Assembly (NCBI GenBank): GCA_964436005.1 | Contig: CAYTBK010000001.1 | Location: forward strand, 21,526 to 85,525 | DNA: 64,000 nucleotides | Source of the DNA: an uncultured Acidobacteriota bacterium | GTDB taxonomy: Bacteria; Acidobacteriota; JAAYUB01 | Reading direction: 5' to 3' | Shown: piece by piece, positions 10,741 to 36,716 of the stretch | Layout: each line of letters begins with the position of its first letter | How positions within the stretch are numbered: the first letter of the stretch is position 1 | Translations under genes and position numbers: made by a program | Notes under the pieces: model-generated | Database searches by the model: none | What the model was told of the DNA's origin: nothing | What the model saw: the letters and a program-made list of their open reading frames with translations, nothing else

Positions 10741-10988
10741 CAGGGCGCCGCGCGAATGGGGGCCGTCGGCCGTACCGCCGGCCCGCCTTGATGCAATGCG
10801 CGCCCAGGCTGGTGGTCCGGTTCCCTTTGATGTGTCTGTGTCTTGGTGGCAAAGTGGCCCGGGTACCCCCGAAACGCCGCCCCGTCGCCCTACCCTGAAA
10901 AAAAGCGAAAAAGCGAAATGAATTGCATTGCACGGAGAAATCCGCTTATACTTCGTGTTTGATTTTGTTTGAGCGAGGTTTTAGCACC

Positions 10989-13490: not shown

Positions 13491-13530
13491 GGCCGCTGGA
13501 TCAACCGATGGGATCCTCTCGCAACACGAC

Positions 13531-15036
13531 ATGAACACGGAAATAGCCGGTTTTGCGGGAATGATGAAGGCCAGTGGCTTGACGGGCGCGGGCAAGCTGG
13601 CAGATACATTTCTCCGGTATCTGACGCTGCTCGCCATGGCCCGCATGCTGGGCGCCGAGGCTTTGGGGATATTCATTCTGGCACGCACCACAGCCATGTC
13701 GCTCAGTACCGTGGGAAGCCTGGGAATGGGCTACGGCGCGGTGCAGCAGATCGCCTTCCATTCGGCCCGGAAAGACGAGGACAGCGTCCAACAGTGCCTC
13801 CGGATCGTCCTGTTGCTTCCCCTGCTGTGCAGCGTGGCCGTCGCCCTGGCCTTGTATGGATGCTCCGGCACCATCGCCCAGACTCTGTTCCACAAGCCCG
13901 CCCTGGCGATTCCGCTGCGTTTCCTGGCTGTTTCTGTGCCCCTCATGACCTTTGCGTACATCCTCCTGGAAGCTTTGCGCGGTTTCCATTCAATCGCCCA
14001 GCGGGTGGTCCTGGAGTTCTACCTCCTCCCCCTCTCGAATCTCGCCTTCCTGTTTCTGTTCTATGCTTTTGGTTGGCGTCTCGAAGCGGCCGTGATGTCG
14101 TTCACCCTTTCATACTTCGTCACCGCTCTGGCCGCCTGGCGCCATTTCCGACCGATGTTTCGGCGGAAAAGTCCGCACGCCCTTTTCAAAAAGGATTTTT
14201 TCTGGAGCTTTTTCCGTTTTTCCCTTCCCCTCACCTTCCTGAACCTTTTTCTGGAGATCAGGCTGCGAATCGATGTGCTCCTGCTGGGCATGCTGCGCAC
14301 GGCGGCCGACACCAGCGTGTATTTCGTCGGGGTGCGCCTCGGGTATTTTCTCTCCATCCCGCTACAAGCCTCACACATGGTTTTCGCGCCCATGATTTCC
14401 AGCGACTACGCCCGGGGAGACGTCTCTCGCATCGAATCCAACTACAAGAACATCACCAAGATGTTATTCATCGGAAGCATGTTCTGCGGAGGTTTCGTTT
14501 TACTTTTCTCCCGGGAATTCCTGACCCTGTTCGGAGAAGACTTCATCCGGGGCCTGGACGTCGTGGTGCTGGTCTGCTTAGGGCAGATCGTGAAAACCGC
14601 CATTGGCAACGCGGGCCCGATGCTGGTCATGATCGGGAAGTCCACCGCCAACCTGGCGGTCATGATTTTCACCTTGACCCTCCTGGTCCTGCTGAACCTG
14701 CTTCTCATCCCATGGTTGGGGCTGACGGGGGCCGGCATCGCCAATTTCACCGCCGTGACCTTTTCCAGCGTGCTGGAAGTCTGCCTCGTCTACCATTACC
14801 TGCACATCCATCCTTTCCGCCGGGATTTTCTGAAACCGGTGGCCGCGGCAGTCACGTCGGCCGCCCTGGTGTTCGCCGTCAAACAAGCCCTTCCATCCGG
14901 CAATTTCTGGACGGTCGCTTCGATGGCACTGTTTTGCCTCCTGTACGCCACCAGCCTCGCTCTGCTACAATTCACGCCTCAGGAACGCGACCTGCTGGCA
15001 GCGTTGAAGCGCAAAGCGCTCAAATGGACGAGGTGA
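13531..15036 (+). CDS. Wzx-type polysaccharide flippase (MOP superfamily, polysaccharide biosynthesis protein family)
   Basis: About 500 aa and polytopic (12 or more predicted TM segments). The start MNTEIAGFAG lies inside ORF 13462..15036. Confidence 0.75.
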   Translation: MNTEIAGFAGMMKASGLTGAGKLADTFLRYLTLLAMARMLGAEALGIFILARTTAMSLSTVGSLGMGYGAVQQIAFHSARKDEDSVQQCLRIVLLLPLLCSVAVALALYGCSGTIAQTLFHKPALAIPLRFLAVSVPLMTFAYILLEALRGFHSIAQRVVLEFYLLPLSNLAFLFLFYAFGWRLEAAVMSFTLSYFVTALAAWRHFRPMFRRKSPHALFKKDFFWSFFRFSLPLTFLNLFLEIRLRIDVLLLGMLRTAADTSVYFVGVRLGYFLSIPLQASHMVFAPMISSDYARGDVSRIESNYKNITKMLFIGSMFCGGFVLLFSREFLTLFGEDFIRGLDVVVLVCLGQIVKTAIGNAGPMLVMIGKSTANLAVMIFTLTLLVLLNLLLIPWLGLTGAGIANFTAVTFSSVLEVCLVYHYLHIHPFRRDFLKPVAAAVTSAALVFAVKQALPSGNFWTVASMALFCLLYATSLALLQFTPQERDLLAALKRKALKWTR

Positions 15037-15037
15037 C

Positions 15038-16042
15038 ATGATCAGGTTCTGGTTCAGCAAGGAAGCCTTGACGGGGGGGAACATATACAACCGCATGGCC
15101 ATGGACGTGCTGCGAGCGCGGGGGGTCGAAATCCGGGAGGAACTGGGCTACACCTCCTATCGGGGGAAAGGGTTCTCCTACGTCAACGGCATGTACTTGC
15201 ACTGCTGCAAGTCTAGCGGTTTGCATGACATTGACATCATGGACTATGGCACTTCCACCTGGTCCTCGCGCAGGTTCAAGGGAAGGAGAATCATCACTCT
15301 TTTTCACTACGACCCGGACGAGCAAGGCAAAGCCTGGCGTTACCGCTTTTTTTTCAAACGTTTTCTGCGCGCGGCAAAAAACGCGAAAATCGTCGTCATC
15401 TCCAGGCATTGGAAGCGGTACCTCGAAGAGCAGGGCATTGCGAATCTCGCTTTGATCCCCTGCGCCTTCGACACGTCCAGGTACCAGGCTTCCTGTCAGC
15501 GGGAGGAACTTCTTCAGCGTTTCGGATTGCCCGACCTCCCCATCGTCTACTTGGGAAAGAACTCGCGCCCCAAGACGCTATCTGCCTACCGGAGCCTGCA
15601 ACATCTGTCGGGCGAATGCCTTCTCGTGACGTCGGGACCAACCCGGGAGTTCAGCGGGCCCGTGCATCTCTCCCTGGATTTTCCGGACTACGTTTCCCTC
15701 CTGCACCATGCCTGCGTGACGGTTGTGATGCCCGACTTCGCGGAAGGGTGGAGCCGGATTGCGCACGAGAGCGTGCTGTGCGGCACACCCGTTCTGGGGA
15801 ACGGACGTGGAGGAATGGGGGAACTGCTGGAGACACTGAACCAGACCCGCATCACGCCGAGCGATTCCGCCACCCTGGTCGCCGCCGTTCGGTCAGCCAT
15901 CGCCAACGCGGGGAGGGTGCCCGAACCCGATCGGCAACGAGCCGGCGACTACGACCTCAAGGCCTTCGGCGACCGTTGGCTGGACGTGGTCTGCGAAGTC
16001 GCCGAGGGTCTGCCGGCCGGAGCGAAGGGGAAAACCCGGTGA
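15038..16042 (+). CDS. glycosyltransferase (GT-B, GT4-like)
   Basis: 334 aa. The ATG is 1 nt after the wzx stop. The C-terminal GT-B half carries an acidic motif. Confidence 0.6.
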   Translation: MIRFWFSKEALTGGNIYNRMAMDVLRARGVEIREELGYTSYRGKGFSYVNGMYLHCCKSSGLHDIDIMDYGTSTWSSRRFKGRRIITLFHYDPDEQGKAWRYRFFFKRFLRAAKNAKIVVISRHWKRYLEEQGIANLALIPCAFDTSRYQASCQREELLQRFGLPDLPIVYLGKNSRPKTLSAYRSLQHLSGECLLVTSGPTREFSGPVHLSLDFPDYVSLLHHACVTVVMPDFAEGWSRIAHESVLCGTPVLGNGRGGMGELLETLNQTRITPSDSATLVAAVRSAIANAGRVPEPDRQRAGDYDLKAFGDRWLDVVCEVAEGLPAGAKGKTR

Positions 16043-17349
16043 CAGCCCATCTATTCAAAGAAGGCCGCCTTCCCGACCAGGCCGCCTGGATCCTTTTTTC
16101 CCTCCTTCTCAACACGCTGCTGTTTAATTGCCGGTTTTCCTCAACGGTCAACCTGTACCTGTCCGACATTTTCCTCGTGGGCCTGCTCGGGCTGGCGGCC
16201 CTCCGTTGGAGATCTGTGCTGGAGCCGTCGAACCGGGTTTGGGGTTTTCTGTTCGGCAGCCTGCTCCTCTACTATTCAATCCTGAGCGTCTATGCCTGTT
16301 TCGCCCCGGGATACAAAGGCACCCTGATCGTGGGTCACTTTCGCTACCTTTTCTTCTACCCGCTGGCTTTTTTCGCCGGTCTGAGCTTCACGATCTCCGC
16401 CGCCGCCAGGGAACGATATGTGCTGTTCATCCAAGTACACGTTCTGCTGGCCATGGTTTCCGGAATGATCGGAATATCGTTCCCGGGCTTGGCCCTGACC
16501 AGCGTGTACGAGGGAGGAAGAATCGTCCCGCCGCAATATTTCATGCTGGTAACGCCGGAGACTGCGCTCCTGTGCTGCTTCCTCTTCGCCCATGCGGCCC
16601 TTTCCCTCGCGACGGGGCGCGGGGCCCGGCCCCGGCACGTCTTTTTTCTGGCGGCCAGTCTGGCCGGCATCCTCGGAACCCAGAACCGAAGCGTGCTGAT
16701 CACGTTGCTTCTGACGACCGGCCTCCTTTTCTGGGCCGGGCGCAAGGCGGGACCGGAAACGCGGACACGCCTGAAGGGGCCGCTGCTCGCCATGGCGCTC
16801 CTGCTGGGGTGTTTCAGCCTGGTCGGTTTCCTGTCCCCCCTGAGGGAAAAATTCCAGAAAAGGTTCGACGACACGATCAGTTTTTTTACCAACGAAAAGC
16901 CCTTTTTCCGCACCATCCCGGGAATACGCCTGGCGCGGAGCCTGGAGACAATCAGGGTGTGGAAAGAATCGCCCCTTCTGGGACAACGCTGGGGGGAAAC
17001 GCCACCTGTTTTCCCGATCCGGGACTGGTCCGGCAAGGTGCTTAAAACCCTCGGGGGGACATCGCACAACTACTACCTGGTTCTCCTGTACAGCACTGGC
17101 CTTGTCGGCTTCGCCCTGGTGATGCTCCTGCACTGGATACTGGGCGGGAAAGTCCGGCCAACCTCAGGGCTGGATGGTCCCAACGTCATTTCCTACGCCC
17201 TGTACCTGTTCTATGCAGGCGTCATGGTGCATGCCGTCGCTAACGTCCAATTGTACGGCCACCCGGTGTTCATCCCCGTCTTCTTCTTCCTCCTGGGTGC
17301 AGCCGCCGCTCGCTTCCCGGCCGTTGCGGAGCAGGAGGCGCAACCGTGA
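16039..17349 (+). CDS. O-antigen polymerase/ligase family protein (Wzy-like), copy 1
   Basis: GTG start overlaps the previous stop (GTGA). It is polytopic, with the Wzy_C-like motif GTSHNYYLVLLYSTGLVGFALVML. The GC-rich 5' part of track ORF 15409..17349 is excluded. Confidence 0.65.
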   Translation: MTAHLFKEGRLPDQAAWILFSLLLNTLLFNCRFSSTVNLYLSDIFLVGLLGLAALRWRSVLEPSNRVWGFLFGSLLLYYSILSVYACFAPGYKGTLIVGHFRYLFFYPLAFFAGLSFTISAAARERYVLFIQVHVLLAMVSGMIGISFPGLALTSVYEGGRIVPPQYFMLVTPETALLCCFLFAHAALSLATGRGARPRHVFFLAASLAGILGTQNRSVLITLLLTTGLLFWAGRKAGPETRTRLKGPLLAMALLLGCFSLVGFLSPLREKFQKRFDDTISFFTNEKPFFRTIPGIRLARSLETIRVWKESPLLGQRWGETPPVFPIRDWSGKVLKTLGGTSHNYYLVLLYSTGLVGFALVMLLHWILGGKVRPTSGLDGPNVISYALYLFYAGVMVHAVANVQLYGHPVFIPVFFFLLGAAAARFPAVAEQEAQP

Positions 17350-18398
17350 AGAGCTTGTTGCTGTTCGACGCGGAAGTGCAGCCATATCGCCAGCCCATCT
17401 ACGAATGGCTGGCCGGGGAGTTTGCCCGGCATGGGTACCGTCTCCACATCGTCTACGACACCCGAAGAAACCACTTGGCGGGCGGGTTGTACACCGGCGT
17501 CCGCTTCAGTTTCCGCTCTTTTCGGAGAATTGCCGCCGAACACGATTGCCGTGTGATGATCCTGTTCGTCTGGCTCCGGTACAAATTTTTGCTCCCCTTC
17601 ATGATGTACGCCCGGTGGAAGGGGATTCGCATGGTATCCTGGTGCCACGGAATTAATTTACAGAAGAAAGATCAATTTTGGGTGAACAAGCTTTACTATA
17701 TCCGGCAGAAGCTGGCCCATGCCGTTCTCCTGTACTCGGAAAGCGAGAGGAAACATGTGCGCACCAAGGCTGCCAAGGTTTTCGTCGCGAACAACACCCT
17801 GAATTTCGAGGCAATCCCGTCCATCCTGTCCTCCCGAGAGGAGTTGAAGGAAAAGTACGGTCTCGCGGGAAAGAAGGTGGTGCTGTGCGTAGGTCGGATG
17901 GACGTCAACAACCGCAAACCCCAGTACCTGGTTGACGGCTTCGAGCGGTTCCCTTTTCCGGGAGGCTTCCTCCTGCTGGTCGGGCCGGGACTTGACCCAG
18001 TCCTGGTTCGCCGAATGGAGAACCGGGAAAACATGCGCGCGGTTGGACCCATTTACGATCCCATCCCCGTCAACGAATTGTTTCGGCTAGCGGACGTGTT
18101 CTGCATGCCGGGCGCCATCGGCCTGGCGATAAACCAGGCGTTTTATCATGGGCTACCCGTTGTGCTGGAAAACGTGAATCACGGGCCGGAAGGCATCTAT
18201 TTCCAGGAAGGGCGAAATGGCCTGCTTTTCCGCGAAGGGGATGTTGAAGACATGATGGCAAAGCTGAAACAGCTTTGCAGCGATGAAGCCCTTCAGCAGT
18301 CCTTTTCCGCCCAGGCGAAAAAAACGGTGGGCCGGCAGGCCCGGATGGATCTGATGCTGGCCGGGTTTCTCCAGGCGGTCCGTTATGCAGAACACTGA
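17346..18398 (+). CDS. glycosyltransferase family 4
   Basis: 350 aa. GTG start overlaps the upstream stop. It has a GT4 C-terminal domain. Confidence 0.8.
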   Translation: MKSLLLFDAEVQPYRQPIYEWLAGEFARHGYRLHIVYDTRRNHLAGGLYTGVRFSFRSFRRIAAEHDCRVMILFVWLRYKFLLPFMMYARWKGIRMVSWCHGINLQKKDQFWVNKLYYIRQKLAHAVLLYSESERKHVRTKAAKVFVANNTLNFEAIPSILSSREELKEKYGLAGKKVVLCVGRMDVNNRKPQYLVDGFERFPFPGGFLLLVGPGLDPVLVRRMENRENMRAVGPIYDPIPVNELFRLADVFCMPGAIGLAINQAFYHGLPVVLENVNHGPEGIYFQEGRNGLLFREGDVEDMMAKLKQLCSDEALQQSFSAQAKKTVGRQARMDLMLAGFLQAVRYAEH

Positions 18399-19620
18399 CG
18401 ACGCCGATCGGATCGAGAACACGGTAAACCGGTTCGTCGGCTGGTTGCGCAGTTACGGTTACACCTCATACGACCAATTCGACTTCTGGGGATCCGCGCT
18501 CGGGGTGTTCGGGAAACGACTGTTTCTCAAGAACAAGATGGCAGCGGCCCCCCTCGTGCTGGGGTTGCAGTTGCTGGAGAGCTTCCTGCCCCGGGCCAGG
18601 TGCCTTTTCGCCACGAAGAAACGTTTCGCCATCGGTGACGCACATTTCGCCCTGGGTTTCCAGAACCGCTTCCGACTCCGGCAAAGGCCGAAGGACCTGG
18701 AAGAATCCCGGCGGCTCCTGCAGGCCCTGCTCTCTTGCGCCACCCCCACGCCCGGAGGGATGGGCTGGGGATACCCATACACCTGGGTCACCGCCTCGGT
18801 GGAATACCCGCCCGGAACCCCCTTCGTCACGGTCACCCCTTACGGCTATGATGCCCTCGTAGGAATGCACGATTTGACCGGCGAAGATCAGTGGCTGGCG
18901 GCAGCCCGGAGCGTCGCCGGTTTCGTGGCAGACGACCTGGCGGAAACCGTCCTTCCCGACGGGGCAGTAGCCGCAGGGTACGGGTTAGGGGACCACAAGC
19001 AGGTGGTCAACGCCAACGCCTACCGGGCCGCCCTCCTGCTGGACGCGCACCACCGTTTCGGCGAAACGCCCTGGCGCGACAAGGCTCTGGGCAACCTGCG
19101 CTTCGTCCTCGGGCAACAGCGTCCAGACGGGTCATGGCCCTATGCGCCTGACGAGCCGTTCATCGACCACTTCCACACCTGTTTCGTTCTCAAGAATCTC
19201 TACCGCAGCTACCAGGTCATGAAAGACCCCGACCTCTTGGCCGCGGTGAACCACGGGTACGCCTACTATCGCCGGCGCCTGTTCCGAAGCGATGGATCGC
19301 CTCGTCACTTCGCTCGGTCCACCCGGCCCAAGTTCCGCCGGATCGAGATGTACGACTACGCGGAAAGCATCCTGCTGGGCGTCCTGCTGCGGGACGAGAT
19401 CAAGAATGCCCTCCCCTTCTCCTTGGCGTTGGCAGGGCAGCTCGTCGGAAAATACCAAATGTCCGCCGGGTATTTCGTCACCAGGGTCACCCCGCTGCGC
19501 ACCCGCAATACGGTCCCCTACCTCCGCTGGCCCCAGGCCCAGTTGTTCCACGCCCTGACCGCCCTGCTCCTGGCCCTCTCCCCCAGTTGCCCCAAGATAC
19601 CGGACCAGACTGAACGCTGA
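18385..19620 (+). CDS. conserved hypothetical protein (possibly alpha/alpha-toroid, lyase/hydrolase-like)
   Basis: 411 aa. It has no TM segments and no recognisable catalytic motifs. It is Trp/Tyr-rich. Confidence 0.6.
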   Translation: MQNTDDADRIENTVNRFVGWLRSYGYTSYDQFDFWGSALGVFGKRLFLKNKMAAAPLVLGLQLLESFLPRARCLFATKKRFAIGDAHFALGFQNRFRLRQRPKDLEESRRLLQALLSCATPTPGGMGWGYPYTWVTASVEYPPGTPFVTVTPYGYDALVGMHDLTGEDQWLAAARSVAGFVADDLAETVLPDGAVAAGYGLGDHKQVVNANAYRAALLLDAHHRFGETPWRDKALGNLRFVLGQQRPDGSWPYAPDEPFIDHFHTCFVLKNLYRSYQVMKDPDLLAAVNHGYAYYRRRLFRSDGSPRHFARSTRPKFRRIEMYDYAESILLGVLLRDEIKNALPFSLALAGQLVGKYQMSAGYFVTRVTPLRTRNTVPYLRWPQAQLFHALTALLLALSPSCPKIPDQTER

Positions 19621-19629
19621 GGAGGGACC

Positions 19630-21492
19630 ATGTGCGGAATCTGCGGAATCGTCCATACGACAGGCCAACCGGTGGAAGCAATCGAAGTGCAGGGCATGAT
19701 GGACCGGCTCCGGCACCGCGGGCCTGACGGCCAGGGCCTTTTCCTGGACGGGAACACGGGCCTCGGGCACGTCCGGTTGAGCATCCTGGACCTCACCCCC
19801 AACGGTCGTCAGCCCATGTTCAGCCCTGATGGCCGCCACTGCCTGATCTACAACGGCGAAGTCTACAACGCGCCGGAACTGCGGGAGGAACTTAAGCACC
19901 GACACGACTTCCGAACCCGCACCGACACGGAGGTGGTCCTCCAAACCTTCCTGGCCTGGGGCCCCGATTGCCTCCCGAAGCTCGACGGCATGTTCGCCTT
20001 CGCCCTGTACGACCGGCAGACACGGGACCTTTTCGTCGCCAGGGACCGGTTCGGGATCAAGCCGTTCTTCTATTTCCAAGATGACCGTCTCTTCGTTTTC
20101 GCCTCGGAGGAGCGGGCCCTGCTGCCGTTCCTCCGAGAGCGAAAACCCAATCCGCAGGCGGTGTACGAATACCTGGCCTTCAACCGGACGGGGCAGGGGA
20201 ACGACTCGTTCTTCCAGGGCGTGCGCCGGTTGCCCCACGGTTGCTGCGGCATGGTCCGGGACGGTCGCCTGGCGCAGCGCAAATGGTACCGGCTGGAGGA
20301 TTCCCGCCAGGCCCCCTTCCGGGAACCCCGGGAATTCTACGAGGCCTTCGCCGGATCGGTGCGCCGCCAGTTGCGCAGCGATGTGCCCGTCGGTGTATGC
20401 CTGAGCGGCGGCCTCGACTCCTCCAGCATTGTTTCCGTCATCCTGAAGGAGGAAAACCGACGCGATCTGAGCACGTTCTCCGCGGTCTACGAGAAGGGAG
20501 ACGCCGCGGACGAGAGCGGGTTCATCCAGGAATACGGGAAAGATCTGGAGAACATGTTCTTTACCAATCCCGATGCGGACGGTCTCCTCGCTGACCTTGA
20601 CCGTTTCGTAGCCTGCCACGCCGAACCGGTGGCGACGCTGGGGCCTTACGCCCAGTTCAAAGTCATGGAACTGGCGGGTCGGCACGTCAAAGTCACCCTG
20701 GATGGCCAGGGGGCCGACGAAATGTTGGCAGGTTACCACTACTTCTTCGGCAGCTACTTCAAGGAACTGTTCACGAACTTCCGCTGGGTGCGGTTGGGGC
20801 GGGAAATGGCTGCCTATTTCCGGAAGCACCGCTCCCTCTATGCACTCCGTTACTTCGCCCTTTACCTGGCCCCCCGAAGCACGAAAGACGCCCTGAGCAG
20901 ATTCCACCACAGTCACATCACCCGGGATTTCTACCAGTCCGGAAAAAATATTTCCCGGATCGGGGCGGACCTGTACGCCCCACGCACGCTCAACGAATCG
21001 CTGCGCCAGCATTTCGAACACAAGCTGGAACACCTGCTGAAATGGGAGGACCACAACAGCATGGCACATTCGGTGGAATCCCGCGTCCCCTTCCTGGACC
21101 ACTCTTTGGTGGAACGAACCTTGGCCCTCCCCGCCGGATGGAAGATACATCAGGCCACCACCAAGTACTTTCTGCGTGAAGCCATGAAAGACATCCTCCC
21201 GGAGCGGATACGGACACGGGCGGACAAGATCGGGTTTGCCACCCCGTGGGCCCGCTGGTTCCGCGCACCCGCCTTCCGGGACAGGATTCTGGATGTTCTC
21301 CACTCCCGCACCTTCCGGGAGCGGGGGTACCTCGAACCGGAACGGTGCCTTCGGGACTACCGCCACCATTTGGAAGGGAAAACAGACATCGCCAAGGAGA
21401 TCTGGAAATGGGTGAATCTGGAACTCTGGTTCGCCGCGTTTATCGACGGCCAAGACACCCCGCAATGCCCGACCGGTCCCGCAGGGCCATGA
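19630..21492 (+). CDS. asnB: asparagine synthase (glutamine-hydrolysing) family amidotransferase, WbpG/WbpS-like
   Basis: The start MCGICGIV has the class-II glutamine amidotransferase Cys2. The synthetase domain motif is SGGLDSS. The SD is GAGGAGG. Confidence 0.85.
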   Translation: MCGICGIVHTTGQPVEAIEVQGMMDRLRHRGPDGQGLFLDGNTGLGHVRLSILDLTPNGRQPMFSPDGRHCLIYNGEVYNAPELREELKHRHDFRTRTDTEVVLQTFLAWGPDCLPKLDGMFAFALYDRQTRDLFVARDRFGIKPFFYFQDDRLFVFASEERALLPFLRERKPNPQAVYEYLAFNRTGQGNDSFFQGVRRLPHGCCGMVRDGRLAQRKWYRLEDSRQAPFREPREFYEAFAGSVRRQLRSDVPVGVCLSGGLDSSSIVSVILKEENRRDLSTFSAVYEKGDAADESGFIQEYGKDLENMFFTNPDADGLLADLDRFVACHAEPVATLGPYAQFKVMELAGRHVKVTLDGQGADEMLAGYHYFFGSYFKELFTNFRWVRLGREMAAYFRKHRSLYALRYFALYLAPRSTKDALSRFHHSHITRDFYQSGKNISRIGADLYAPRTLNESLRQHFEHKLEHLLKWEDHNSMAHSVESRVPFLDHSLVERTLALPAGWKIHQATTKYFLREAMKDILPERIRTRADKIGFATPWARWFRAPAFRDRILDVLHSRTFRERGYLEPERCLRDYRHHLEGKTDIAKEIWKWVNLELWFAAFIDGQDTPQCPTGPAGP

Positions 21493-21504
21493 CCCGCCTG
21501 GCCC

Positions 21505-21541
21505 GGAAACCGGAAGCGGGCTGCCATGGCAGGGTGTTTCC
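21505..21541 (+). promoter_or_regulatory. stem-loop (GGAAAC...CTGCCATGGCAG...GTTTCC) abutting the GTG start of the DUF354 gene
   Basis: A 12-bp perfect palindrome sits inside a 6-bp outer stem and ends 1 nt before the start codon. It could occlude the RBS. Confidence 0.25.
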
Positions 21542-22717
21542 GTGAAAAAGAGAATACTGGTCGACATCAACCACCCGGCCCATGTCCACTATTTCCGGAA
21601 CTGCATCCGGCTTCTGCGCGAACAAGGGCACCAGGTGGCCATCGTCTCGCGAGACCGGTACCCGGCTCGGGAACTCCTGGAGGCCTACGGTGAGCCTTTC
21701 GTGGACCGGGGCCGGGGGGGCGGGTCCCTGGCGGGCAAGCTCCTGTACCTGCCCCGGGCGGAGTGGAAGATTTTCTCGACCGCCCTGCGATTCAGGGCAA
21801 ACCTGTTCCTTAGTTTCGGGACCCCATATCCCAACCACGTGGCCTGGCTGCTGCGCAAACCGTCCATCAACTTCCACGACACGGAAAACGCGGGGTTGGC
21901 CCTCGCCTTCACCCGGCCTTTCGCTCGGGCTTTCTGCACCCCGGCTTGCTTCGGCCGGGACTTGGGCCGCAAACACTTCCGGTTCCGGGGATACATGGAG
22001 CTGGCTTACCTGCACCCCAATCAATTTGTCCCCGACCCGACAGCCTGCCAGGACCTCGGCCTCGCACCGGCAGAACCGTATGTGATTCTTCGATTCGTCT
22101 CCTGGCAGGCCACCCACGACATCGGGCACCCAGGCCTGTCCCTGGCCGTCAAGCGCGAGGCCTTGCGGCGACTTTCTCCCTACGCCAGGGTCTTTGTTTC
22201 CTCCGAAAAAGAACTTCCCCCGGACCTGGAACCATACCGGATCCGCATCCGCCCGGAGCGAATGCACCACGTTCTTGCCGGCGCCGCCTTGCTCTACGGC
22301 GAGAGCGCCACCATGGCCTCCGAATGCGCCGTCTTGGGAACACCCGCCATCTACCTGGACAATGACGGCCGCGGCTACACCCGGGAGGAGGAAGAGCGAT
22401 ACGGGTTGGTGTTCAATTTCAAGGAAACGCCGGCGGAGCAAGCCCGGTCTTTGGACAAGGCCGAGGAACTGCTCCGGACCCCGAACCGGCCCGAGGAATG
22501 GCAGCGACGCAGGTCGCGCCTTCTGGCAGACTCAATCGATGTCACCGCCTTCATGACCTGGTTCCTGAACGAATACCCCCGAAGCGCAGAAACGCTTCGC
22601 GCCGATCCCGGGTACGCGGATGCGTTCCGGACCGGCCCTTTCAGCAGCCCGGGCCCGGAGACGTGGCCGACTCCGTTCCGGAGAGCGCAGCCCCCAATTC
22701 CACCGCCACCCGCATGA
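21542..22717 (+). CDS. DUF354 family protein (GT-B/UDP-GlcNAc-2-epimerase-like fold)
   Basis: MKKRILVDINHPAHVHYFRNCIRLL is characteristic of DUF354. The start is GTG. The Pro-rich C-terminal tail overlaps the convergent aminotransferase gene by about 77 nt. Confidence 0.7.
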   Translation: MKKRILVDINHPAHVHYFRNCIRLLREQGHQVAIVSRDRYPARELLEAYGEPFVDRGRGGGSLAGKLLYLPRAEWKIFSTALRFRANLFLSFGTPYPNHVAWLLRKPSINFHDTENAGLALAFTRPFARAFCTPACFGRDLGRKHFRFRGYMELAYLHPNQFVPDPTACQDLGLAPAEPYVILRFVSWQATHDIGHPGLSLAVKREALRRLSPYARVFVSSEKELPPDLEPYRIRIRPERMHHVLAGAALLYGESATMASECAVLGTPAIYLDNDGRGYTREEEERYGLVFNFKETPAEQARSLDKAEELLRTPNRPEEWQRRRSRLLADSIDVTAFMTWFLNEYPRSAETLRADPGYADAFRTGPFSSPGPETWPTPFRRAQPPIPPPPA

Positions 22718-23807
22718 TTTCATCCTCCCGGATGGTTCCGTCCAGGGGTAAGCTGAGCACGCCGTCCGAGAGCGTTGCGGCGACGGGGAAGGCATCGGAA
22801 TCGTAGCCCAGAAAGGCGCAGGCGGGTTGCCGATGGATAGGGACAGGGTAATGGATTCCGCAGCCGATTCCCTGCGACTGCAAGTGCCGCCGTCGGCAGT
22901 CCCGCTCGGTGGCCCGCACAACGAAGAGATGGAAGGCGGAAGACGCCAGAGCGTCCTCCTGCTCGATGACGGCGATGCCCGGCAGAGGCGCCAGCACCCT
23001 CCGGTAGAGTGCCGCCATCTCCTTGCGGTGGGCGTTCCACGCTTCCAGCCAGGGAAGCTTCACCAGCAGGACGGCTGCCTGGATCGTGTCCAGGCGACTG
23101 TTGCCCCCCAGGATCTGATGACGATACTTCTCCGTCCGGCCATGGTCCCGAAGCAGCCGGATCCGTTCCGCCAGGGCGAGGTCAGCGCAAGCGACGGCTC
23201 CCGCATCGCCGAGCGCCCCCAGATTTTTACCGGGGAAAAAGCTGAAGCAGGTGATGTCGGCGAAGTGCACGATGCTCCGCCCCCCTACCGTCGCCCCGTG
23301 GGCCTGGGCCGCGTCGCAGATCAGCGGCAGTCCGTATTCCCGGCAGATCCCGGAAATCTCCGGCAGGTAACGGGGAGAGCCGTACAGGGCCACGTAGATC
23401 ACAGCCTTGACGGCCCGGCACCCGGTACCGGACAGGGCGGCTTTCAGGAGAGCAGGGTCAAGGATGCCGGAACCAGCCTCCACGTCCAGCAGGACAGGCC
23501 GGGCGCCAGCCAGCGCGACAGCCTCGGCGGTGGCCAGGAAAGTCATGTCCGGCAGGATCACCTGATGGCCCCTCCCGATGCCCAGGGCCTTGAGCGCCAG
23601 GGTGAGCGCATCGGTGCCCGAACTCACGCCCACCACTTGGGGAACGTCCAGAAAGGCCCCGAAGGCGCTTTCGAATTCTCCGACCTCCCGGCCGTTGATG
23701 TAGCGGTTGTGGTCGAGGCAGTCCGCCAGTGCACGGTCCAGGGCCGGCCGGAGAGGCTTGTGCATCCTTTCCAGGTTCACCAGGGGAATGGAATCAGCTC
23801 TGTTCAC
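22641..23807 (-). CDS. DegT/DnrJ/EryC1/StrS-family PLP-dependent sugar aminotransferase (WbpE-like)
   Basis: 388 aa with the family fold. The conserved region around GDAGAVA is typical of sugar aminotransferases. Confidence 0.85.
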   Translation of the reverse strand: MNRADSIPLVNLERMHKPLRPALDRALADCLDHNRYINGREVGEFESAFGAFLDVPQVVGVSSGTDALTLALKALGIGRGHQVILPDMTFLATAEAVALAGARPVLLDVEAGSGILDPALLKAALSGTGCRAVKAVIYVALYGSPRYLPEISGICREYGLPLICDAAQAHGATVGGRSIVHFADITCFSFFPGKNLGALGDAGAVACADLALAERIRLLRDHGRTEKYRHQILGGNSRLDTIQAAVLLVKLPWLEAWNAHRKEMAALYRRVLAPLPGIAVIEQEDALASSAFHLFVVRATERDCRRRHLQSQGIGCGIHYPVPIHRQPACAFLGYDSDAFPVAATLSDGVLSLPLDGTIREDEIMRVAVELGAALSGTESATSPGPGC

Positions 23808-23837
23808 GATATCTATCTCGTTTAGAAATTTATATTT

Positions 23838-24371
23838 TCAAGAGAAATCCGGACAACCACCGCGAATGGGCGCAGCGGGCACATCGGCCGGTTTCGGAAG
23901 GAGACGCAGGAGACGAGCGGGGTTGCCGGCCCAAACCCCCGGTTGCGCGATGTCCCTGGTCACTACTGACCCGGCCCCGATGACCACCCCGTCGCAAACT
24001 GTGACCGGGAGCAATGTCGCGTTGGATCCGATGGAGACCCTGTTGCCGATACGGGTTGCCCGCCAGAGGGCGCGATCGCCTCCGGCCGGCCCCCCGCGGG
24101 AGAAGAGATCGTTGACGAACATCACCCCGTGCGCGATGAAGCAATCTTCCCCCACCTGTACACCTTCGCAAAGAAAGCTGTGGCTTTGTATCCGGGTCCG
24201 CGCACCGACGACAACGTTCCGCTGGATCTCCACGAAAGGCCCGACGAAGGCCCCGTCTCCTAGTGTACATTCGTAGAGATTGACAGGTTCCACCAGGGTG
24301 ACCCCTTCCCCGAACATGACGCCGCGTATGCCGCTGGAGATGATTCTAGGGTTTCCGCCGTTCTTGTCCAT
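23838..24371 (-). CDS. hexapeptide-repeat sugar N-acetyltransferase (WbpD/PglD-like)
   Basis: LbH repeats are present (VGEDCFIAHGVMF..., IGNRVSIGSNATLLP). The start is MDKNGGNPR. Confidence 0.8.
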   Translation of the reverse strand: MDKNGGNPRIISSGIRGVMFGEGVTLVEPVNLYECTLGDGAFVGPFVEIQRNVVVGARTRIQSHSFLCEGVQVGEDCFIAHGVMFVNDLFSRGGPAGGDRALWRATRIGNRVSIGSNATLLPVTVCDGVVIGAGSVVTRDIAQPGVWAGNPARLLRLLPKPADVPAAPIRGGCPDFS

Positions 24372-24376
24372 GTTCG

Positions 24377-25444
24377 TCAACCTCTCACGCCCAGACGGCA
24401 CAGCCTGGGTCGGAATGCCAGCGCGATCTCCTGCCCCGTTTCGATGGATTCGTAGATCGCGTTGATGAGGGCCAGGGATTTTCGGCCCTCCAGGCCGTCC
24501 ACCAGGGCGGGAGCGTTATTGCGCAGGCTCTCCACTACATTCCGGAGGAAGCTGAGATGGCCGAACCCATAAACGTCGGGCGGATTCTGATTGTAGCAGG
24601 TCCTGATTTCCTCGTCTTCAGGAAGAGCGGGGAAGAAGGACCAGGTCCGGATCTCGTTGACGGCGAAACCGGATATTTCCACCGTGCCGTTTTCGCCCAG
24701 GATGGAGATGGATCCTTCCAGGTCCGCGGGCCGGGTGGCCGTGGTGGCCTCCACGACGCCGAGGGCGCCACTGGCGAAAGAGATGACGGCCACACCGGTG
24801 TCCTCAGTCTCGATGTTGGCCAGCGCGGTGCGGCTCCGCGCGAAAACGGACACCGGTTCGCCCAGCATCCACTCCAGCAGGTCGATGTGGTGGCTGGCCT
24901 GATTTGTGAAAACGCCGCCGTCCATGGCCCAGGTCCCCCGCCAGGCATCGTGGTCGTAATATTCCTGCCGCCGGCACCACCGCACGCGGACGGTCCCCAT
25001 GACGATCTTTCCGAACCGTCCCCGAACCAGGGCCTCCTTCAGCTTGACCACAGGCAGATTGTAGCGGTTCTGCTTGACTACGAACAGTTTGACCCCGGCA
25101 CGGTCGCAGGCTTCGATGAGGCGGTCGGCATCCTCCAGTCGCAGGGCCAGGGGCTTTTCCACCACGACATGCCTTCCCAGCGACGCCACATCCATGGCGA
25201 TGGCAGCGTGGCTCCCGCTCTCGGTGAGGATGTTCACCGCCTCGACTTCCGGGTGCCGACCGAGCATCTCCCGATAGTCGGTGAACCATGGCACGAGATG
25301 CTTCTCGCCGAAAGCCCGGGCGCGGTCCGGCATCAGGTCGCACACGGCCGCGAGCCGGGCGCCTGGCACCGCACCGCTCAGGAGCGCGGCGTGTTTGGAT
25401 GCAATACGTCCGCAACCGACGATAGCAAAAGGGATGTCGTTCAT
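24377..25444 (-). CDS. Gfo/Idh/MocA-family NAD-dependent sugar oxidoreductase (WbpB-like)
   Basis: N-terminal Rossmann motif AIVGCGRIASKHA and the EKPLA motif are present. Confidence 0.85.
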   Translation of the reverse strand: MNDIPFAIVGCGRIASKHAALLSGAVPGARLAAVCDLMPDRARAFGEKHLVPWFTDYREMLGRHPEVEAVNILTESGSHAAIAMDVASLGRHVVVEKPLALRLEDADRLIEACDRAGVKLFVVKQNRYNLPVVKLKEALVRGRFGKIVMGTVRVRWCRRQEYYDHDAWRGTWAMDGGVFTNQASHHIDLLEWMLGEPVSVFARSRTALANIETEDTGVAVISFASGALGVVEATTATRPADLEGSISILGENGTVEISGFAVNEIRTWSFFPALPEDEEIRTCYNQNPPDVYGFGHLSFLRNVVESLRNNAPALVDGLEGRKSLALINAIYESIETGQEIALAFRPRLCRLGVRG

Positions 25445-25523: not shown

Positions 25524-27527
25524 CTACTCGCTGCGGATCCGGTTGAAGAGAATGTTGTACAAACCCCAAAATAGAACCCGAATATCCGTCAGGATGGGAT
25601 GCGCTTTCTTTTCTTGAAGATAACGGATTTCCGAATCGATGTATTCCTCTACCCTTTGCGTGCGGTACGCCACATAAGGGGGGATGCATCCAGGCTTTCG
25701 CTTTTGTCTCTCTGCCCGCAACCACTCCGGATAATTCGCCAGGAAGCGGTTGCTGAGAGGGCGCACCCCCACCAGGGCCATGTCCCCTTTCAGCAGGTTC
25801 ACCACTTGAGGGATCTCGTCAAGCCAGAACCGGCGTAAGAACCGCCCCCAGGCGGTCACCCGGATATCCTCCTTGACCTTGCCCAATTCACCATATCCGA
25901 ACAAGGAGGTCACGTAACCTTGCAGGTATTCCGAGTATGGGTGCATGGTGCGGATTTTGTAGACATAAATGAGTTTCCCGCCCTTGCCCGTGCGCTGCAT
26001 CTTGAAGAGCAGGCCCGAGGCGGGTTGTCGCCCCAATTCGGGCTCCCCGGTACGGCGGGCGCAGAAATGTACCGCACTGTCGTGGAATTCGATCCCGACG
26101 ATGGAAAACCCGCAATAACTGAGCCGGCCGAAGCCCTCGGCCAGGGAGAAGACCCGGGTTCTGCCCGGCGGGAACAATTGCCGTACTCTCCGGAGTAAGA
26201 TTATTTTCGGCAACAGACGGAACCAAATGAAATCCAAGAAGTAAAGGAAATTGGCCACTGCTCGCGGATAATGCTGGACATAGTGGAGGCGGCGCAGTTC
26301 GCAAGGCTGGAAATTGCCCAGGAAAACTCCTCCGGGAACAAGCTTCCGATGGACTTCCCGCAAGTACCGGTTGAGATCCCGCTGGGTATTGAGGCGGTGC
26401 CGGTTCATGAAGAACTCCATGGTCCCGTCAGGCATTACCTCGACATTGTAGGGATTGCTGGAGTCAAGAACCTCGGCCCGTACGATATCTACGGATTCGA
26501 TGTCCACCGTTCGTTGCACAAAGGCCATGATCTCGGGACAATCCTTCAGGTAAATATGTTTCATCTTTTCGGCAAACTGGGGGGAGGCTGAATCACGTTT
26601 CTCGAAGCGGACGGGGCCGGCGAAGGCTGCCATATGCTGGGTGACAAGCACATCTACCTTCGCCGCTTCCGCCAGCTCCGGTACGCGGAAAATAGAGCCG
26701 AGCTTCTCGCCTGGTTTCCCGAAAACGTAATAAAGGGTGACGAAGGCGAGTTCCAACACAGCCACGACGAACAAGGGCAGAAGATATCTCCTGGGTGAGG
26801 AACCGGTCAGCTTGAAGATATACAAAACTGCAACGCTGCAGCAAAGCACAACGGCCAAACTCTTCACATGGGGATATATCATTTTCAGGCAACTGGATTG
26901 CCATTCCAGCCGGAAGTGATGGATCAACAAGCCAGCAAGAAGCCATATGAAATAAACATAAAAAAATGGGATGGCTGAGGGGTGCTCCTCGCCGTTCAGT
27001 CCGAATTGGTTGATGTAAGCCAAAGTGTAAAGAGCAGCGAGCGATGACAACTCAAGGCCAAAAAAAGCAAAAGAGAGAAGCCGTTCCCTCCGGCTGACGC
27101 CTTCACTGAAAAAAGGGAGGTAATCCCCAGAAAGAAAAAGGATTTCCAACAGCAGATACAGAGAGAGTGCCCCATAGATGATGAAACGTGAAAGATCGAA
27201 GAGATCCGCCACATACAGAAACAGAGAGATCAGGCCCGCCATGTACAGACAACTGGTGACAAAGGGCGCCAGTTTGTGGCTCTGGCGGCGTTCTTGATCC
27301 AAGCGACGGAATTTGTCGCATGCCAGACTGACACTGGCCCAAGCGACAATGTAGACCAACATCAACTGTAAATAAGTGAGATCGATGGCTAATTTCTTTT
27401 TCTTGAGGCAATGAGTGGCCAGGAAAGCAACGAGGAGAAGGCAGAGGTCCACCAGATACCTTCGGGCAACCGTTCTGGGTCGGCCTGATGATTGAATGGG
27501 TGCCCACGATGGTCGGAGACCCGGCAT
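25524..27527 (-). CDS. initiating polyprenyl-phosphate sugar phosphotransferase (bacterial sugar transferase family) with atypical N-terminal architecture
   Basis: The C-terminal catalytic domain reads GKGGKLIYVYKIRTM...WLDEIPQVVNLLKGDMALVGVRP (KFRTM-type motif). It is preceded by about 8 predicted TM helices and a ~190-aa soluble region of unknown function. A good SD (AAGGGAGAAAG) is present. Confidence 0.75.
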   Translation of the reverse strand: MPGLRPSWAPIQSSGRPRTVARRYLVDLCLLLVAFLATHCLKKKKLAIDLTYLQLMLVYIVAWASVSLACDKFRRLDQERRQSHKLAPFVTSCLYMAGLISLFLYVADLFDLSRFIIYGALSLYLLLEILFLSGDYLPFFSEGVSRRERLLSFAFFGLELSSLAALYTLAYINQFGLNGEEHPSAIPFFYVYFIWLLAGLLIHHFRLEWQSSCLKMIYPHVKSLAVVLCCSVAVLYIFKLTGSSPRRYLLPLFVVAVLELAFVTLYYVFGKPGEKLGSIFRVPELAEAAKVDVLVTQHMAAFAGPVRFEKRDSASPQFAEKMKHIYLKDCPEIMAFVQRTVDIESVDIVRAEVLDSSNPYNVEVMPDGTMEFFMNRHRLNTQRDLNRYLREVHRKLVPGGVFLGNFQPCELRRLHYVQHYPRAVANFLYFLDFIWFRLLPKIILLRRVRQLFPPGRTRVFSLAEGFGRLSYCGFSIVGIEFHDSAVHFCARRTGEPELGRQPASGLLFKMQRTGKGGKLIYVYKIRTMHPYSEYLQGYVTSLFGYGELGKVKEDIRVTAWGRFLRRFWLDEIPQVVNLLKGDMALVGVRPLSNRFLANYPEWLRAERQKRKPGCIPPYVAYRTQRVEEYIDSEIRYLQEKKAHPILTDIRVLFWGLYNILFNRIRSE

Positions 27528-27578
27528 GCTATACTTTCTCCCTTTTCATTGACAGATTGGATGCGGAAATCTGCTCAC

Positions 27579-28907
27579 TCAGTTGCTGGCCTGCGCAGCG
27601 GAACAAGCCTGGCCTTCGTCCCGGGAAGCGTCTTTTCCCGCCCAGACTGCATGGGAAACGGCAGCACCCAAAAGCATAAAGAATATCGGCACGGTGACGG
27701 GGTTCGAATCCATCAGGGTATTCGCACCATTGAATACCAGCAGACCGATCAGAAAAATGAAAAAACTGAAAACTGTGTCCTTGCCCATTGCCAACTTTCC
27801 ACGCGGCCAAGAGCACTGCAGGATTTTCCCAAAAAATACCATCATGACAGCAAACCCTATGATTCCTGTCTGATAAAGAATGGTCACGTAATAGTTATGC
27901 GATGTTCCATAGACGGAACGCACATAGTGCCCCTTCAGGTCGTATATCTTGAACTCCTTCATCTGCCTACCCCACCCACAACCAAGGATGGGGTATTTCG
28001 ACCACTCCCGCAGGGTAGCCACGGTGCGTCCGACACGTATTCCCAAATTGGTGTTAAAGAACGATCTTCTTCCGGATACTGTGTCTTTCGTCTCAGCGAT
28101 CCTCTTCTTGTAAAGTTGGTTCACCGAAGGTAAGAACATCGCAAGGGAAATGGCAGTCACCAGCAGTAGGGTCAGACCCGCACCGTAAAGAACCCGTTTG
28201 CGAACGGCCTTTTCCGCCCGGATACCATATCCACAGACCAGAAGGATCATGATACCGAAAACGACAATGGTGCTCCTATGCTGGCTTCCGATAATTCCCG
28301 CCAGGGAAGCGGCGAGAAATGGGGACGCGCTGAGGAAGCGGCGGCGGCGTACCGCCACGGAGACGAACTCGAAGACGAAGACCAGGCAGCAGAGAACCGC
28401 GGTGCCATGATTCACGAGCATGAAGTAGGAGGCGGGAATGCTGACCCCCCGGAAATAGACGGTGGCAGGATTGGTTCCGGCCAAAGCGAGGCAGAACAGG
28501 CCGTAAAGCACAGAGATCAGGACATGGAACCGCACGGCCCAAACCAGCCATTTCACATCCTCTCGTTCGATGACACACACCAACCCAGCCAAAAAGAGGA
28601 GTGGGTAGATGAAAAGGTTGCGGAAACGGTCCAGGATAGCCAACAGGCTACTTTCTTGGATATAACGAGCGCATAGCATCAGGAAAGTGTAATAGACCAG
28701 AAGGACGGCAAAGACGAGCAACCAGGGCCTGGCCCGGTCCCTAGTTTCCTTCTGTCGCAAGCAGACCGCGGCAAAGCCCAGGAGGGCCAGGACAAAAAAA
28801 TCCGAAAGATAGAGTTTGATTCCGACTTCAAACAGGCAGTTGCTCAGAAGGGTATTGAGCAAAAGAAAAAAAACAAGGAAGAAGCCTGCCCGCTGCATTG
28901 GCCGCAT
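27579..28907 (-). CDS. O-antigen polymerase/ligase family protein (Wzy-like), copy 2
   Basis: It is a paralogue of the 16039..17349 product (LLNTLLSNCLF, GTSHNYYVTILYQTGIIGFAVMMV) and is polytopic. Confidence 0.65.
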   Translation of the reverse strand: MRPMQRAGFFLVFFLLLNTLLSNCLFEVGIKLYLSDFFVLALLGFAAVCLRQKETRDRARPWLLVFAVLLVYYTFLMLCARYIQESSLLAILDRFRNLFIYPLLFLAGLVCVIEREDVKWLVWAVRFHVLISVLYGLFCLALAGTNPATVYFRGVSIPASYFMLVNHGTAVLCCLVFVFEFVSVAVRRRRFLSASPFLAASLAGIIGSQHRSTIVVFGIMILLVCGYGIRAEKAVRKRVLYGAGLTLLLVTAISLAMFLPSVNQLYKKRIAETKDTVSGRRSFFNTNLGIRVGRTVATLREWSKYPILGCGWGRQMKEFKIYDLKGHYVRSVYGTSHNYYVTILYQTGIIGFAVMMVFFGKILQCSWPRGKLAMGKDTVFSFFIFLIGLLVFNGANTLMDSNPVTVPIFFMLLGAAVSHAVWAGKDASRDEGQACSAAQASN

Positions 28908-29303
28908 GTTTCCCGCCGTTAAAATGACTGGTCGCTTCCGGAGCTTTCACCGACCCGCCGGCGCCGCTCACTTCAGATAATCGGAATGCTACACGAAACC
29001 GATACCATGTTCAAGATCAGTATTGAGAATGGGTAAGGTTCATTTTCCATGAGAGGCCTGGCTGGCGAGCCAATGGGCTTTCACCGGGCTTCCCAGCTCA
29101 ACCCCACACGCCCCGAAACTCCAACCTGAATTGTCCCCGCTTGCACGTCCCCCCGCCACCGAGACGCCCGCAACGCGCAATTCCCTTGCGTTTTCAGCCA
29201 GGTCTTCGTAGTCTTCCAATGCTGTCGAATGAACGCTCCGAATGTTCTTTTCTCAAGAAAACCTGTGTTTCCGACCCTCTATTTCCGCCCGAAGGTAGAA
29301 GTG

Positions 29304-35972: not shown

Positions 35973-36127
35973 GAAGTCCTCGCGCTTGCAGGTTGGGTCT
36001 GGAGGCCTCCCCCGGCGCCGGACCGGCCGAAGGCCGGGCCCCGCCCGCGGAATGCGTCCGAAAGCGGCATTGTACCACAACTGGACGGCGCATTCCGTAC
36101 ACGCTGGATTCCTTGGCCGCCCGGGAG

Positions 36128-36133
36128 TATAAT
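36128..36133 (+). promoter_or_regulatory. perfect TATAAT -10 hexamer 32 nt upstream of the 36165 gene
   Basis: Read directly as gggagTATAATccg. No clear -35 is present. Confidence 0.3.
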
Positions 36134-36164
36134 CCGTCCAAACTTCATTTTTTCTGGAGGAACC

Positions 36165-36659: not shown

Positions 36660-36679
36660 ACGGTTTCCGGAAATCCCCG

Positions 36680-36716
36680 GCGCCGGGCGGGGCAGCCCCC
36701 CTCCCGGCGCTTTTCC
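36680..36716 (+). terminator. GC-rich hairpin followed by CTTTTCC; putative intrinsic terminator
   Basis: GCGCCGGGCGGGG cagcc CCCCTCCCGGCGC, then TTTTCC. Confidence 0.5.

Follow-up and report, generated by a model that had tools for sequence, protein, structure and literature searches.

A predicted WlbA/B/C-type cassette for a diacetamido uronic sugar and a separate DUF354 module in a surface-polysaccharide locus of an uncultured Acidobacteriota bacterium

Introduction

Which sugar does the surface-polysaccharide locus of an uncultured Acidobacteriota bacterium make, and does a DUF354 protein encoded in it stand in for the sugar 2-epimerase WbpI? The locus lies in a 64,000-nucleotide stretch of DNA (assembly GCA_964436005.1, contig CAYTBK010000001.1, positions 21,526 to 85,525 of the forward strand), which is referred to as the window and whose own numbering is used throughout. 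At about 12.3-32.5 kb the window carries a Wzx/Wzy-dependent surface-polysaccharide locus composed of two convergent operons. An earlier note on this DNA, made from the letters alone, singled out five neighbouring genes, which encode an AsnB-like glutamine-dependent amidotransferase (19630-21492, plus strand), a DUF354 protein (21542-22717, plus strand), a DegT-family aminotransferase dependent on pyridoxal 5'-phosphate (PLP) (22641-23807, minus strand), a hexapeptide N-acyltransferase of the left-handed beta-helix type (23838-24371, minus strand) and a Gfo/Idh/MocA dehydrogenase (24377-25444, minus strand). It assigned them to the route by which the Pseudomonas aeruginosa B-band enzymes WbpA-B-E-D-I make a uridine diphosphate (UDP)-linked 2,3-diacetamido-2,3-dideoxy-hexuronic acid. 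All five genes are where that note had placed them and belong to the families that it named, as judged from Pfam matches and from a high third-position GC content (0.71-0.79) in each of the five reading frames.

We regard it as reasonably probable that the three minus-strand genes, provided with external UDP-N-acetylglucosaminuronic acid (UDP-GlcNAcA), would make UDP-2,3-diacetamido-2,3-dideoxy-glucuronic acid (UDP-GlcNAc3NAcA) in the gluco configuration, and that an (α/α)6-barrel protein, the AsnB-like enzyme and the DUF354 protein would constitute a separate module in which DUF354 is no replacement of WbpI. What the analysis shows directly is which genes are there, their families and folds, their conserved order and how often they occur together; every substrate and product named here is inferred. 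Sugars of this class have been described from Pseudomonas, Bordetella, Thermus and Porphyromonas, and the core of the locus is known chemistry in a new organism: the polysaccharide on the surface of this uncultured bacterium is predicted to be decorated with a 2,3-diacetamido-2,3-dideoxy-hexuronic acid, which may be amidated. Of more use is a negative finding: DUF354 proteins should not be annotated as WbpI substitutes on the basis of their fold alone.

The Predicted WlbA/B/C-Type Cassette

The dehydrogenase matches both the N- and the C-terminal GFO_IDH_MocA domains of Pfam and has the two-domain fold of this family. Its closest solved relatives are two WlbA enzymes, that of Bordetella pertussis (3Q2K; 46% identity over 339 residues, 313 bits, E 1.9e-92, with the EKP and NQASH..D motifs kept in the alignment) and that of Chromobacterium violaceum (3Q2I; E 1.1e-84), both of which were reportedly crystallised with UDP-GlcNAcA. 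The best structure other than a WlbA reaches only 99.5 bits, and 3O9Z, which represents the WbpB class of P. aeruginosa and Thermus thermophilus, gives E 2.6e-11. Because the two WlbA structures score so far above 3O9Z and the next structure, the window's oxidoreductase is by sequence a WlbA-class enzyme and a predicted UDP-GlcNAcA 3-dehydrogenase. Its relatives at 60-78% identity number in the thousands, and some of them bear the Joint Genome Institute name UDP-N-acetyl-2-amino-2-deoxyglucuronate dehydrogenase. For the two WlbA enzymes themselves sequential mechanisms are reported, in contrast to the alpha-ketoglutarate-dependent ping-pong mechanism of P. aeruginosa WbpB (PMC10622841). Given its low similarity to 3O9Z, the window's enzyme is predicted to work without such a ping-pong cycle.

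The strongest evidence for the role of the three genes comes from comparative gene context. We surveyed 82 loci that carry relatives of the dehydrogenase with at least 59% identity, 80 of them found in a metagenome scan and the other two being L008 and L010 (individual loci are referred to by such numbers where they have to be told apart). A hexapeptide transferase gene directly follows the WlbA relative in 53 of the 63 loci where this position is visible, its product being at least 55% identical to that of the window in 40 of these, and in 45 of 51 loci the first 2.5 kb downstream of the WlbA relative include a DegT gene. L008, which contains the closest relative (78% identity), has the identical order of a 667-aa priming transferase, WlbA, hexapeptide transferase and DegT; an Epimerase_2 gene is found there two genes further on, some 3 kb downstream of the three-gene set. 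From the class of the dehydrogenase and the gene order shared with related loci, the three genes can be assigned to a conserved WlbA/B/C-type cassette predicted to serve the synthesis of UDP-GlcNAc3NAcA. The proposal that the oxidoreductase, aminotransferase and acetyltransferase are equivalents of WbpB, WbpE and WbpD is supported, by the WlbA match and by the conserved order alike.

The nearest described counterpart is the wlbA-wlbB-wlbC set of B. pertussis, which makes the core of the pathway to 2,3-diacetamido-2,3-dideoxy-mannuronic acid (ManNAc3NAcA) for the band A trisaccharide of lipopolysaccharide. The window shares with it the similar dehydrogenase and, the Bordetella order being dehydrogenase, acetyltransferase, aminotransferase, also the arrangement of genes. 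However, WlbB (3MQG; E 4.7e-10) is only a remote relative of the window's acyltransferase, the cassette is not followed by a WlbD-type Epimerase_2 gene, and it is joined to an operon in which a Wzy protein and a Bac_transf priming transferase are encoded. With the P. aeruginosa O5 system the window has the three central steps in common, WbpE being a clear homologue of the window's aminotransferase, but its dehydrogenase is of the other class and neither wbpA nor wbpI is present in the window.

The two remaining cassette enzymes are less sharply defined by their own sequences. The aminotransferase (Pfam DegT_DnrJ_EryC1, E 2e-96) keeps the PLP lysine motif SF.P.KNLGA and shows the fold-type I architecture. 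Ranked by score, its solved relatives are 7B0D, which is labelled glutamine--scyllo-inositol transaminase (a label only), then DesV, QdtB and, in fourth place, WbpE (E 1.2e-64); the last three are all sugar C3 aminotransferases, and a C3 aminotransferase in the WlbC/WbpE role is what we predict. The acyltransferase (Pfam Hexapep) is predicted to be the 3-N-acetyltransferase, in the WlbB/WbpD role. The 3-amino-sugar N-acetyltransferases 7S43, FdtD-like 4MZU, WlbB and QdtC are among its solved relatives, all of them weak, and LpxD, GlmU and other hexapeptide transferases match it about as weakly. That the gene regularly sits behind WlbA relatives speaks for the 3-N-acetyltransferase role. The start of this gene was placed at the ATG at 24371, which is preceded by GAGAGG; the same 177-aa product is called on an independent assembly, and the longest mechanically derived open reading frame (ORF) extends to 24401.

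DesV, QdtB and 7S43, and likewise the FdtD-like enzyme and QdtC, act on deoxythymidine diphosphate (dTDP)-linked sugars. If such matches were taken at face value, the aminotransferase and the acyltransferase could make a dTDP-3-acetamido-3,6-dideoxyhexose of the Quip3NAc or Fucp3NAc type and not a UDP-linked uronic sugar. That route, however, would need a 4,6-dehydratase of the RmlB type, for which a tblastn search of the window with RffG gave E 0.013 at best, and the scanned ORFs include no cupin-type 3,4-ketoisomerase. It has no use for a Gfo/Idh/MocA dehydrogenase, and yet both genes regularly follow a WlbA relative as parts of a conserved unit. We hold this explanation to be highly improbable.

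The sequence of reactions that we propose for the cassette would begin with UDP-GlcNAcA supplied by a 6-dehydrogenase encoded outside the window. The WlbA-type enzyme would oxidise it at C3 in a reaction dependent on nicotinamide adenine dinucleotide, by a mechanism reported to be sequential for this class; the DegT enzyme would then carry out the PLP-dependent transamination at C3, and the hexapeptide enzyme would N-acetylate the new amino group with acetyl-coenzyme A (acetyl-CoA), giving UDP-2,3-diacetamido-2,3-dideoxy-glucuronic acid. As no 2-epimerase is encoded in the window, the product would by default remain gluco-configured.

A Uronic or a Non-Uronic Sugar

The earlier note had remarked that a WbpA-type 6-dehydrogenase is not encoded in the window, and this proved correct. 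There is no Pfam match to UDPG_MGDP_dh or to Epimerase_2 in the approximately 40 main ORFs of the window, and six-frame tblastn searches of the window with the WecC and WecB proteins of E. coli and the Epimerase_2 protein of the metagenomic locus L008 gave E 0.009 at best. It had also been argued that, if no such enzyme existed elsewhere, the product would be the non-uronic UDP-GlcNAc3NAc. In this case, the dehydrogenase would act on UDP-N-acetylglucosamine (UDP-GlcNAc), and UDP-GlcNAc3NAc would either be the final sugar or be oxidised later at C6, an order of steps that has reportedly been proposed for methanogens.

The logic of this argument is sound, and NF040723, an archaeal model for UDP-GlcNAc 3-dehydrogenases, does match the dehydrogenase partially (E 7.7e-32). 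Nevertheless, the outcome is unlikely. The match amounts to 111 bits, far below the cut-off of 450 set for this archaeal model, and the same protein scores 313 bits against WlbA, a user of UDP-GlcNAcA. The lack of a 6-dehydrogenase in the window does agree with a non-uronic product, and of the 12 related loci in which at least 8 kb can be seen to either side, 9 likewise have no WecC-like gene nearby and only 3 do. But precisely because related loci are so often without one, the missing linked gene is a weak argument for a non-uronic sugar. In 17 of 56 loci (about 30%), moreover, a WecC/WbpA-like 6-dehydrogenase gene stands directly upstream of the WlbA relative on the same strand. In a neighbour-joining tree of the WlbA relatives rooted on B. 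pertussis WlbA, these loci are distributed over three or more clades, which flank the window's own clade on either side; the tree has no support values, and the spread across clades is suggestive only.

Two further proteins of the locus speak for a uronic sugar and not for the non-uronic one: the AsnB-like amidotransferase requires a carboxylate, the fold class of a heparinase II/III-like protein is active on uronates, and both proteins would fit an acidic sugar or a uronic acid polymer. The heparinase-like one is an 850-aa protein with DUF4962 and Hepar_II_III_C domains (Pfam), encoded on the plus strand at 29229-31781, and has a fold of the uronate lyase or epimerase type; it could be a lyase or an enzyme of the uronate C5-epimerase type. 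A fragment of a homologue of this protein (L013, positions 1-630; 40% identity over 210 aa) abuts a DUF354 gene in an Acidobacteria metagenome-assembled genome.

The DUF354 Protein

The product of the gene at 21542-22717 matches PF04007 with 35.6 bits (cut-off 22) and belongs to a large family, with more than 4,700 bacterial and archaeal matches at 42-68% identity. The residues invariant in the family include H16, D113, R184, W188, H192, D193, E254 and E261. The best structural neighbours of the protein's predicted model are non-hydrolysing UDP-sugar 2-epimerases, so that the GT-B fold of the UDP-GlcNAc 2-epimerase type that the earlier note had seen in it can be retained at the level of the model. 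Foldseek searches with this model do not, however, separate epimerases from glycosyltransferases of the GT1 type. The only paper on the function of DUF354 that our literature search found is a survey in which a glycosyltransferase-like fold with few conserved catalytic residues was predicted for the family and its function was called "obscure" (PMC4520260).

The earlier note went further and suggested that this protein could substitute for a WbpI-type 2-epimerase. The family-level evidence does not bear this out. In Pfam, the protein matches PF04007 only and not PF02350; phmmer and profile searches of the solved structures in the Protein Data Bank returned chance matches only and no epimerase; and neither WecB nor the L008 epimerase, used as tblastn queries, picked up the DUF354 gene. 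The profile comparison with the epimerase family that had been suggested earlier was made with hhalign against 14 Epimerase_2 sequences and gave a weak result, with a probability of 76% in the global mode and 11% in the local mode.

Since the local probability is only 11%, conclusions about individual residues rest on a weak full-length alignment, and they have to be read with this in mind. The residues to which roles have been ascribed in the epimerases are Arg10, Lys15, Asp95, Glu117, Glu131 and His213 in E. coli numbering (PMC10622841). In the low-confidence hhalign alignment, the column of Asp95 is variable in DUF354 proteins, containing Thr, Ser or other residues but never Asp, and Arg10 and Lys15 are aligned with His11 and His16. 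The same full-length profile alignment brings together the C-terminal DUF354 motif GESATMASE.A.LG.P...GRGYT.EEE and the epimerase motif DSGG.QEEA..LG.P...R..TER.E. DUF354 thus shares with Epimerase_2 enzymes such as WecB, WbpI/WlbD and T. thermophilus 8SXW an architecture of two Rossmann domains of the GT-B type and a similar C-terminal nucleotide-binding motif, but it has no detectable membership in their family, and in the available alignment it keeps neither the catalytic Asp nor the Arg/Lys pair.

Gene context was examined in 80 species-level DUF354 loci. Were DUF354 a replacement of the epimerase, it would be expected to track the three Wbp-type genes and to be found apart from true epimerases; the loci show otherwise. 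A genuine Epimerase_2 gene directly adjoins the DUF354 gene in 6 of the 80 loci and is nearby in 12, and a WlbA relative is present in a single one. DUF354 co-occurs with Epimerase_2 rather than replacing it. The six loci in which the two genes abut are L019, L020, L036, L041, L067 and L077, with gaps of 7-113 bp, and in four of them (L019, L020, L041 and L067) a Bac_transf priming transferase gene follows further downstream. It is possible that DUF354, Epimerase_2 and the priming transferase form a three-gene unit.

The complete pathway put forward in the earlier note, in which DUF354 would act as a non-canonical 2-epimerase that yields the manno form of UDP-GlcNAc3NAcA or of its amide, so that the locus would make ManNAc3NAcA or the corresponding uronamide, is to be weighed at this point. 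Besides the aligned C-terminal motif, it draws on two features of gene arrangement: L008 has its Epimerase_2 gene about 3 kb downstream of the three genes, the place where in the window they are abutted by DUF354 instead, and no Epimerase_2 gene is in view in any of the five loci where DUF354 and the three genes are found together (the window, L070, L099, L101 and L131). The absence of any Epimerase_2 match, the weak profile alignment with its His residues in place of Arg and Lys, the failure of Foldseek to tell epimerases from GT1 transferases, the small number of conserved catalytic residues and the rarity of a WlbA relative beside DUF354 all argue to the contrary, and we consider this pathway quite unlikely. 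Taken together, the missing family and structure matches, the weak profile comparison, the apparent lack of conserved catalytic residues in its full-length alignment and the adverse gene context place DUF354 outside the epimerase family.

An epimerase would, by analogy, not be obligatory for such a pathway in the first place, because the diacylamido sugar of the Wbp pathway in Porphyromonas gingivalis stays gluco-configured without WbpI, and gluco-configured uronamides are known from this organism (PMC7468200). DUF354 is more likely to be a glycosyltransferase-like or other nucleotide-sugar-handling enzyme that works with the priming transferase than a replacement of WbpI.

The AsnB-Like Amidotransferase

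The third element of the earlier proposal was an amidotransferase step. The AsnB-like protein (Pfam Asn_synthase and GATase_6/7) has an intact N-terminal MCGICG motif (residues 1-6, with Cys2 as the nucleophile) and an intact SGGLDSS PP-loop, and it passes the TIGR01536 model with 427 bits; from its sequence it looks catalytically competent. Against TIGR03108 (eps_aminotran_1) it scores 369 bits, which does not reach the cut-off of 816.9 and covers only profile positions 1-376 of 628. This model does not discriminate, as the AsnB-like genes linked to three-gene cassettes elsewhere fail it as well. NCBIfam models were also tried as a means of separating cassette-linked from DUF354-linked AsnB genes and were rejected, the pattern being the same for both.

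A precedent for the amide-forming step comes from P. gingivalis, in which the AsnB homologue PGN_1234 (WbpS) is encoded beside wbpE and its deletion abolishes the uronamide of the 2,3-diacylamido glucuronic acid made by the Wbp pathway; WbqG of E. coli O121 is similarly required for uronamides (PMC7468200). By analogy, the window's enzyme, a candidate WbpS-like uronamide former, would most likely adenylate a sugar carboxylate and convert it to the amide. An AsnB-like gene lies near wbp genes in P. gingivalis as it does in the window, and the product there is the gluco-configured 2,3-diacylamido uronamide made without WbpI. On the other hand, the closest relatives of the window's AsnB are linked to DUF354 and not to wbp genes, its likeness to PGN_1234 is one of family, and no vimA or vimE gene was identified in the window.

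AsnB-like genes are present in 5 of the 12 fully visible cassette loci, and in L010 (Geomonas), L123 and L161 such a gene comes immediately after those for WlbA, hexapeptide transferase and DegT. These cassette-following AsnB proteins are, however, only 28-36% identical to that of the window, the relatives of which at 47-63% identity occur in 15 of the 80 DUF354 loci (within 1 kb in 7), nearly always without the three genes. Accordingly, of the amidotransferase that the earlier note included in the pathway, what stands is its plausibility, founded on Cys2, the PP-loop and the WbpS precedent; its link to the cassette is weak, as its close relatives travel with DUF354, and the enzyme is of the amide-forming WbpS type and not of the acetamidino-forming WbpG type.

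The (α/α)6/AsnB/DUF354 Module

The AsnB-like gene is preceded by a gene (18385-19620, plus strand) for an uncharacterised 411-aa (α/α)6-barrel protein that is without a family match and is a conserved neighbour of DUF354. Together with AsnB and DUF354 it constitutes a separate, recurrent and uncharacterised module. The (α/α)6 protein adjoins DUF354 in 7 of the 80 DUF354 loci, and a Bac_transf priming transferase gene is found within 2.6 kb downstream of DUF354 in 24. L002 and L007 show (α/α)6 protein, AsnB, methyltransferase, DUF354 and priming transferase one after the other, and none of the three cassette genes is there. Among the five loci in which DUF354 and the three genes do occur together, two, L070 and L101, share a run that goes from the (α/α)6 protein through DUF354, the priming transferase, WlbA and the hexapeptide transferase to DegT. 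Upstream of this run and in the same orientation, both contain a gene (L070, 3466-5589; L101, 2901-5033) for a 707-710-aa fusion of a zinc-dependent alcohol dehydrogenase-type and a Gfo/Idh/MocA domain, directly adjacent in L101 and two genes away in L070; the two loci come from unrelated metagenomic lineages. L070 in addition encodes a sulfotransferase and an Ldh_2-family dehydrogenase.

Several observations weigh against our assignment of the cassette and against its separation from DUF354. The window has no UDP-GlcNAc 6-dehydrogenase in its 64 kb. The top matches of the aminotransferase (DesV, QdtB) and of the acyltransferase (7S43) are dTDP-sugar enzymes, with WbpE and WlbB ranking lower, and acetyl-CoA is the acyl donor of the hexapeptide transferase by prediction. 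The window's AsnB subfamily mostly occurs apart from the three genes and may act on a different carboxylate. Finally, the fact that the five loci with both DUF354 and the three genes show no Epimerase_2 gene leaves some room for an epimerase.

The potential for novelty in this locus lies solely in the recurrent module beside priming transferases. DUF354 gains from it a context that can be tested: a tight link to the priming transferase, frequent company of an AsnB-like and an (α/α)6-barrel protein and sometimes of a true 2-epimerase. One may speculate, although we think it rather improbable, that 18385-22717 is an uncharacterised sugar-modifying module that resides next to priming transferases in several bacterial phyla, and that DUF354, which itself occurs in archaea too, stems from the UDP-GlcNAc 2-epimerase lineage, has a His-rich active site and catalyses a new reaction of nucleotide sugars, which would be either a new type of glycosyl transfer or a non-canonical epimerisation acting on a 2,3-diacetamido uronic sugar or on the amide of it.

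Layout of the Locus and Neighbouring Genes

The plus-strand operon begins upstream of the module with genes for a GT4 glycosyltransferase (12318-13490), a Wzx flippase (13462-15036), another glycosyltransferase (15038-16042), a Wzy_C-like polytopic membrane protein (about 16039-17349) and a second GT4 glycosyltransferase (17346-18398), all assigned by Pfam. Frame analysis places the Wzy_C-like gene inside the mechanical ORF 15409-17349. An alternative ORF at 16128-17045 was rejected as a gene: its translation is rich in Arg, Pro and Gly and out of frame, and the Wzy_C-like gene is the real one.

The minus-strand operon starts with a Wzy_C-family membrane protein of the polymerase or ligase type (27579-28907; Pfam Wzy_C, E 2.9e-15), so that the locus has two proteins of the Wzy/ligase type. 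It continues with the priming enzyme, a polyprenyl-phosphate phosphoglycosyl transferase (25524-27527; Pfam Bac_transf, TIGR03025) located directly upstream of the three cassette genes. From Wzy_C through the priming transferase, oxidoreductase and hexapeptide transferase to DegT, the successive gaps are 51, 79, 5 and 30 bp. At its far end, the DegT gene meets the convergent DUF354 gene, and their 3' ends overlap by 77 bp (22641-22717); the last 30 or so residues of DUF354, which are encoded in the overlap, are Pro-rich and unconserved and have a predicted local distance difference test (pLDDT) score below 50 in the model. The DUF4962/heparinase II/III-like gene and a methyltransferase gene (Pfam) come next, on the plus strand.

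The GC content is 52-57% across the priming transferase and Wzy genes (25524-28907), compared to about 64% elsewhere, which suggests a mosaic locus or partial horizontal acquisition. Just 5' of the first glycosyltransferase gene, a gene for a FabH-like ketoacyl-acyl carrier protein synthase III (10923-11990, plus strand) may also be a member of the locus, for example for acyl decoration. Beyond the other end, the longest-ORF reading of the aspartyl-tRNA synthetase gene (34230-36821, minus strand) puts about 300 residues ahead of the oligonucleotide/oligosaccharide-binding (OB)-fold domain, and the real start of this gene is probably further downstream.

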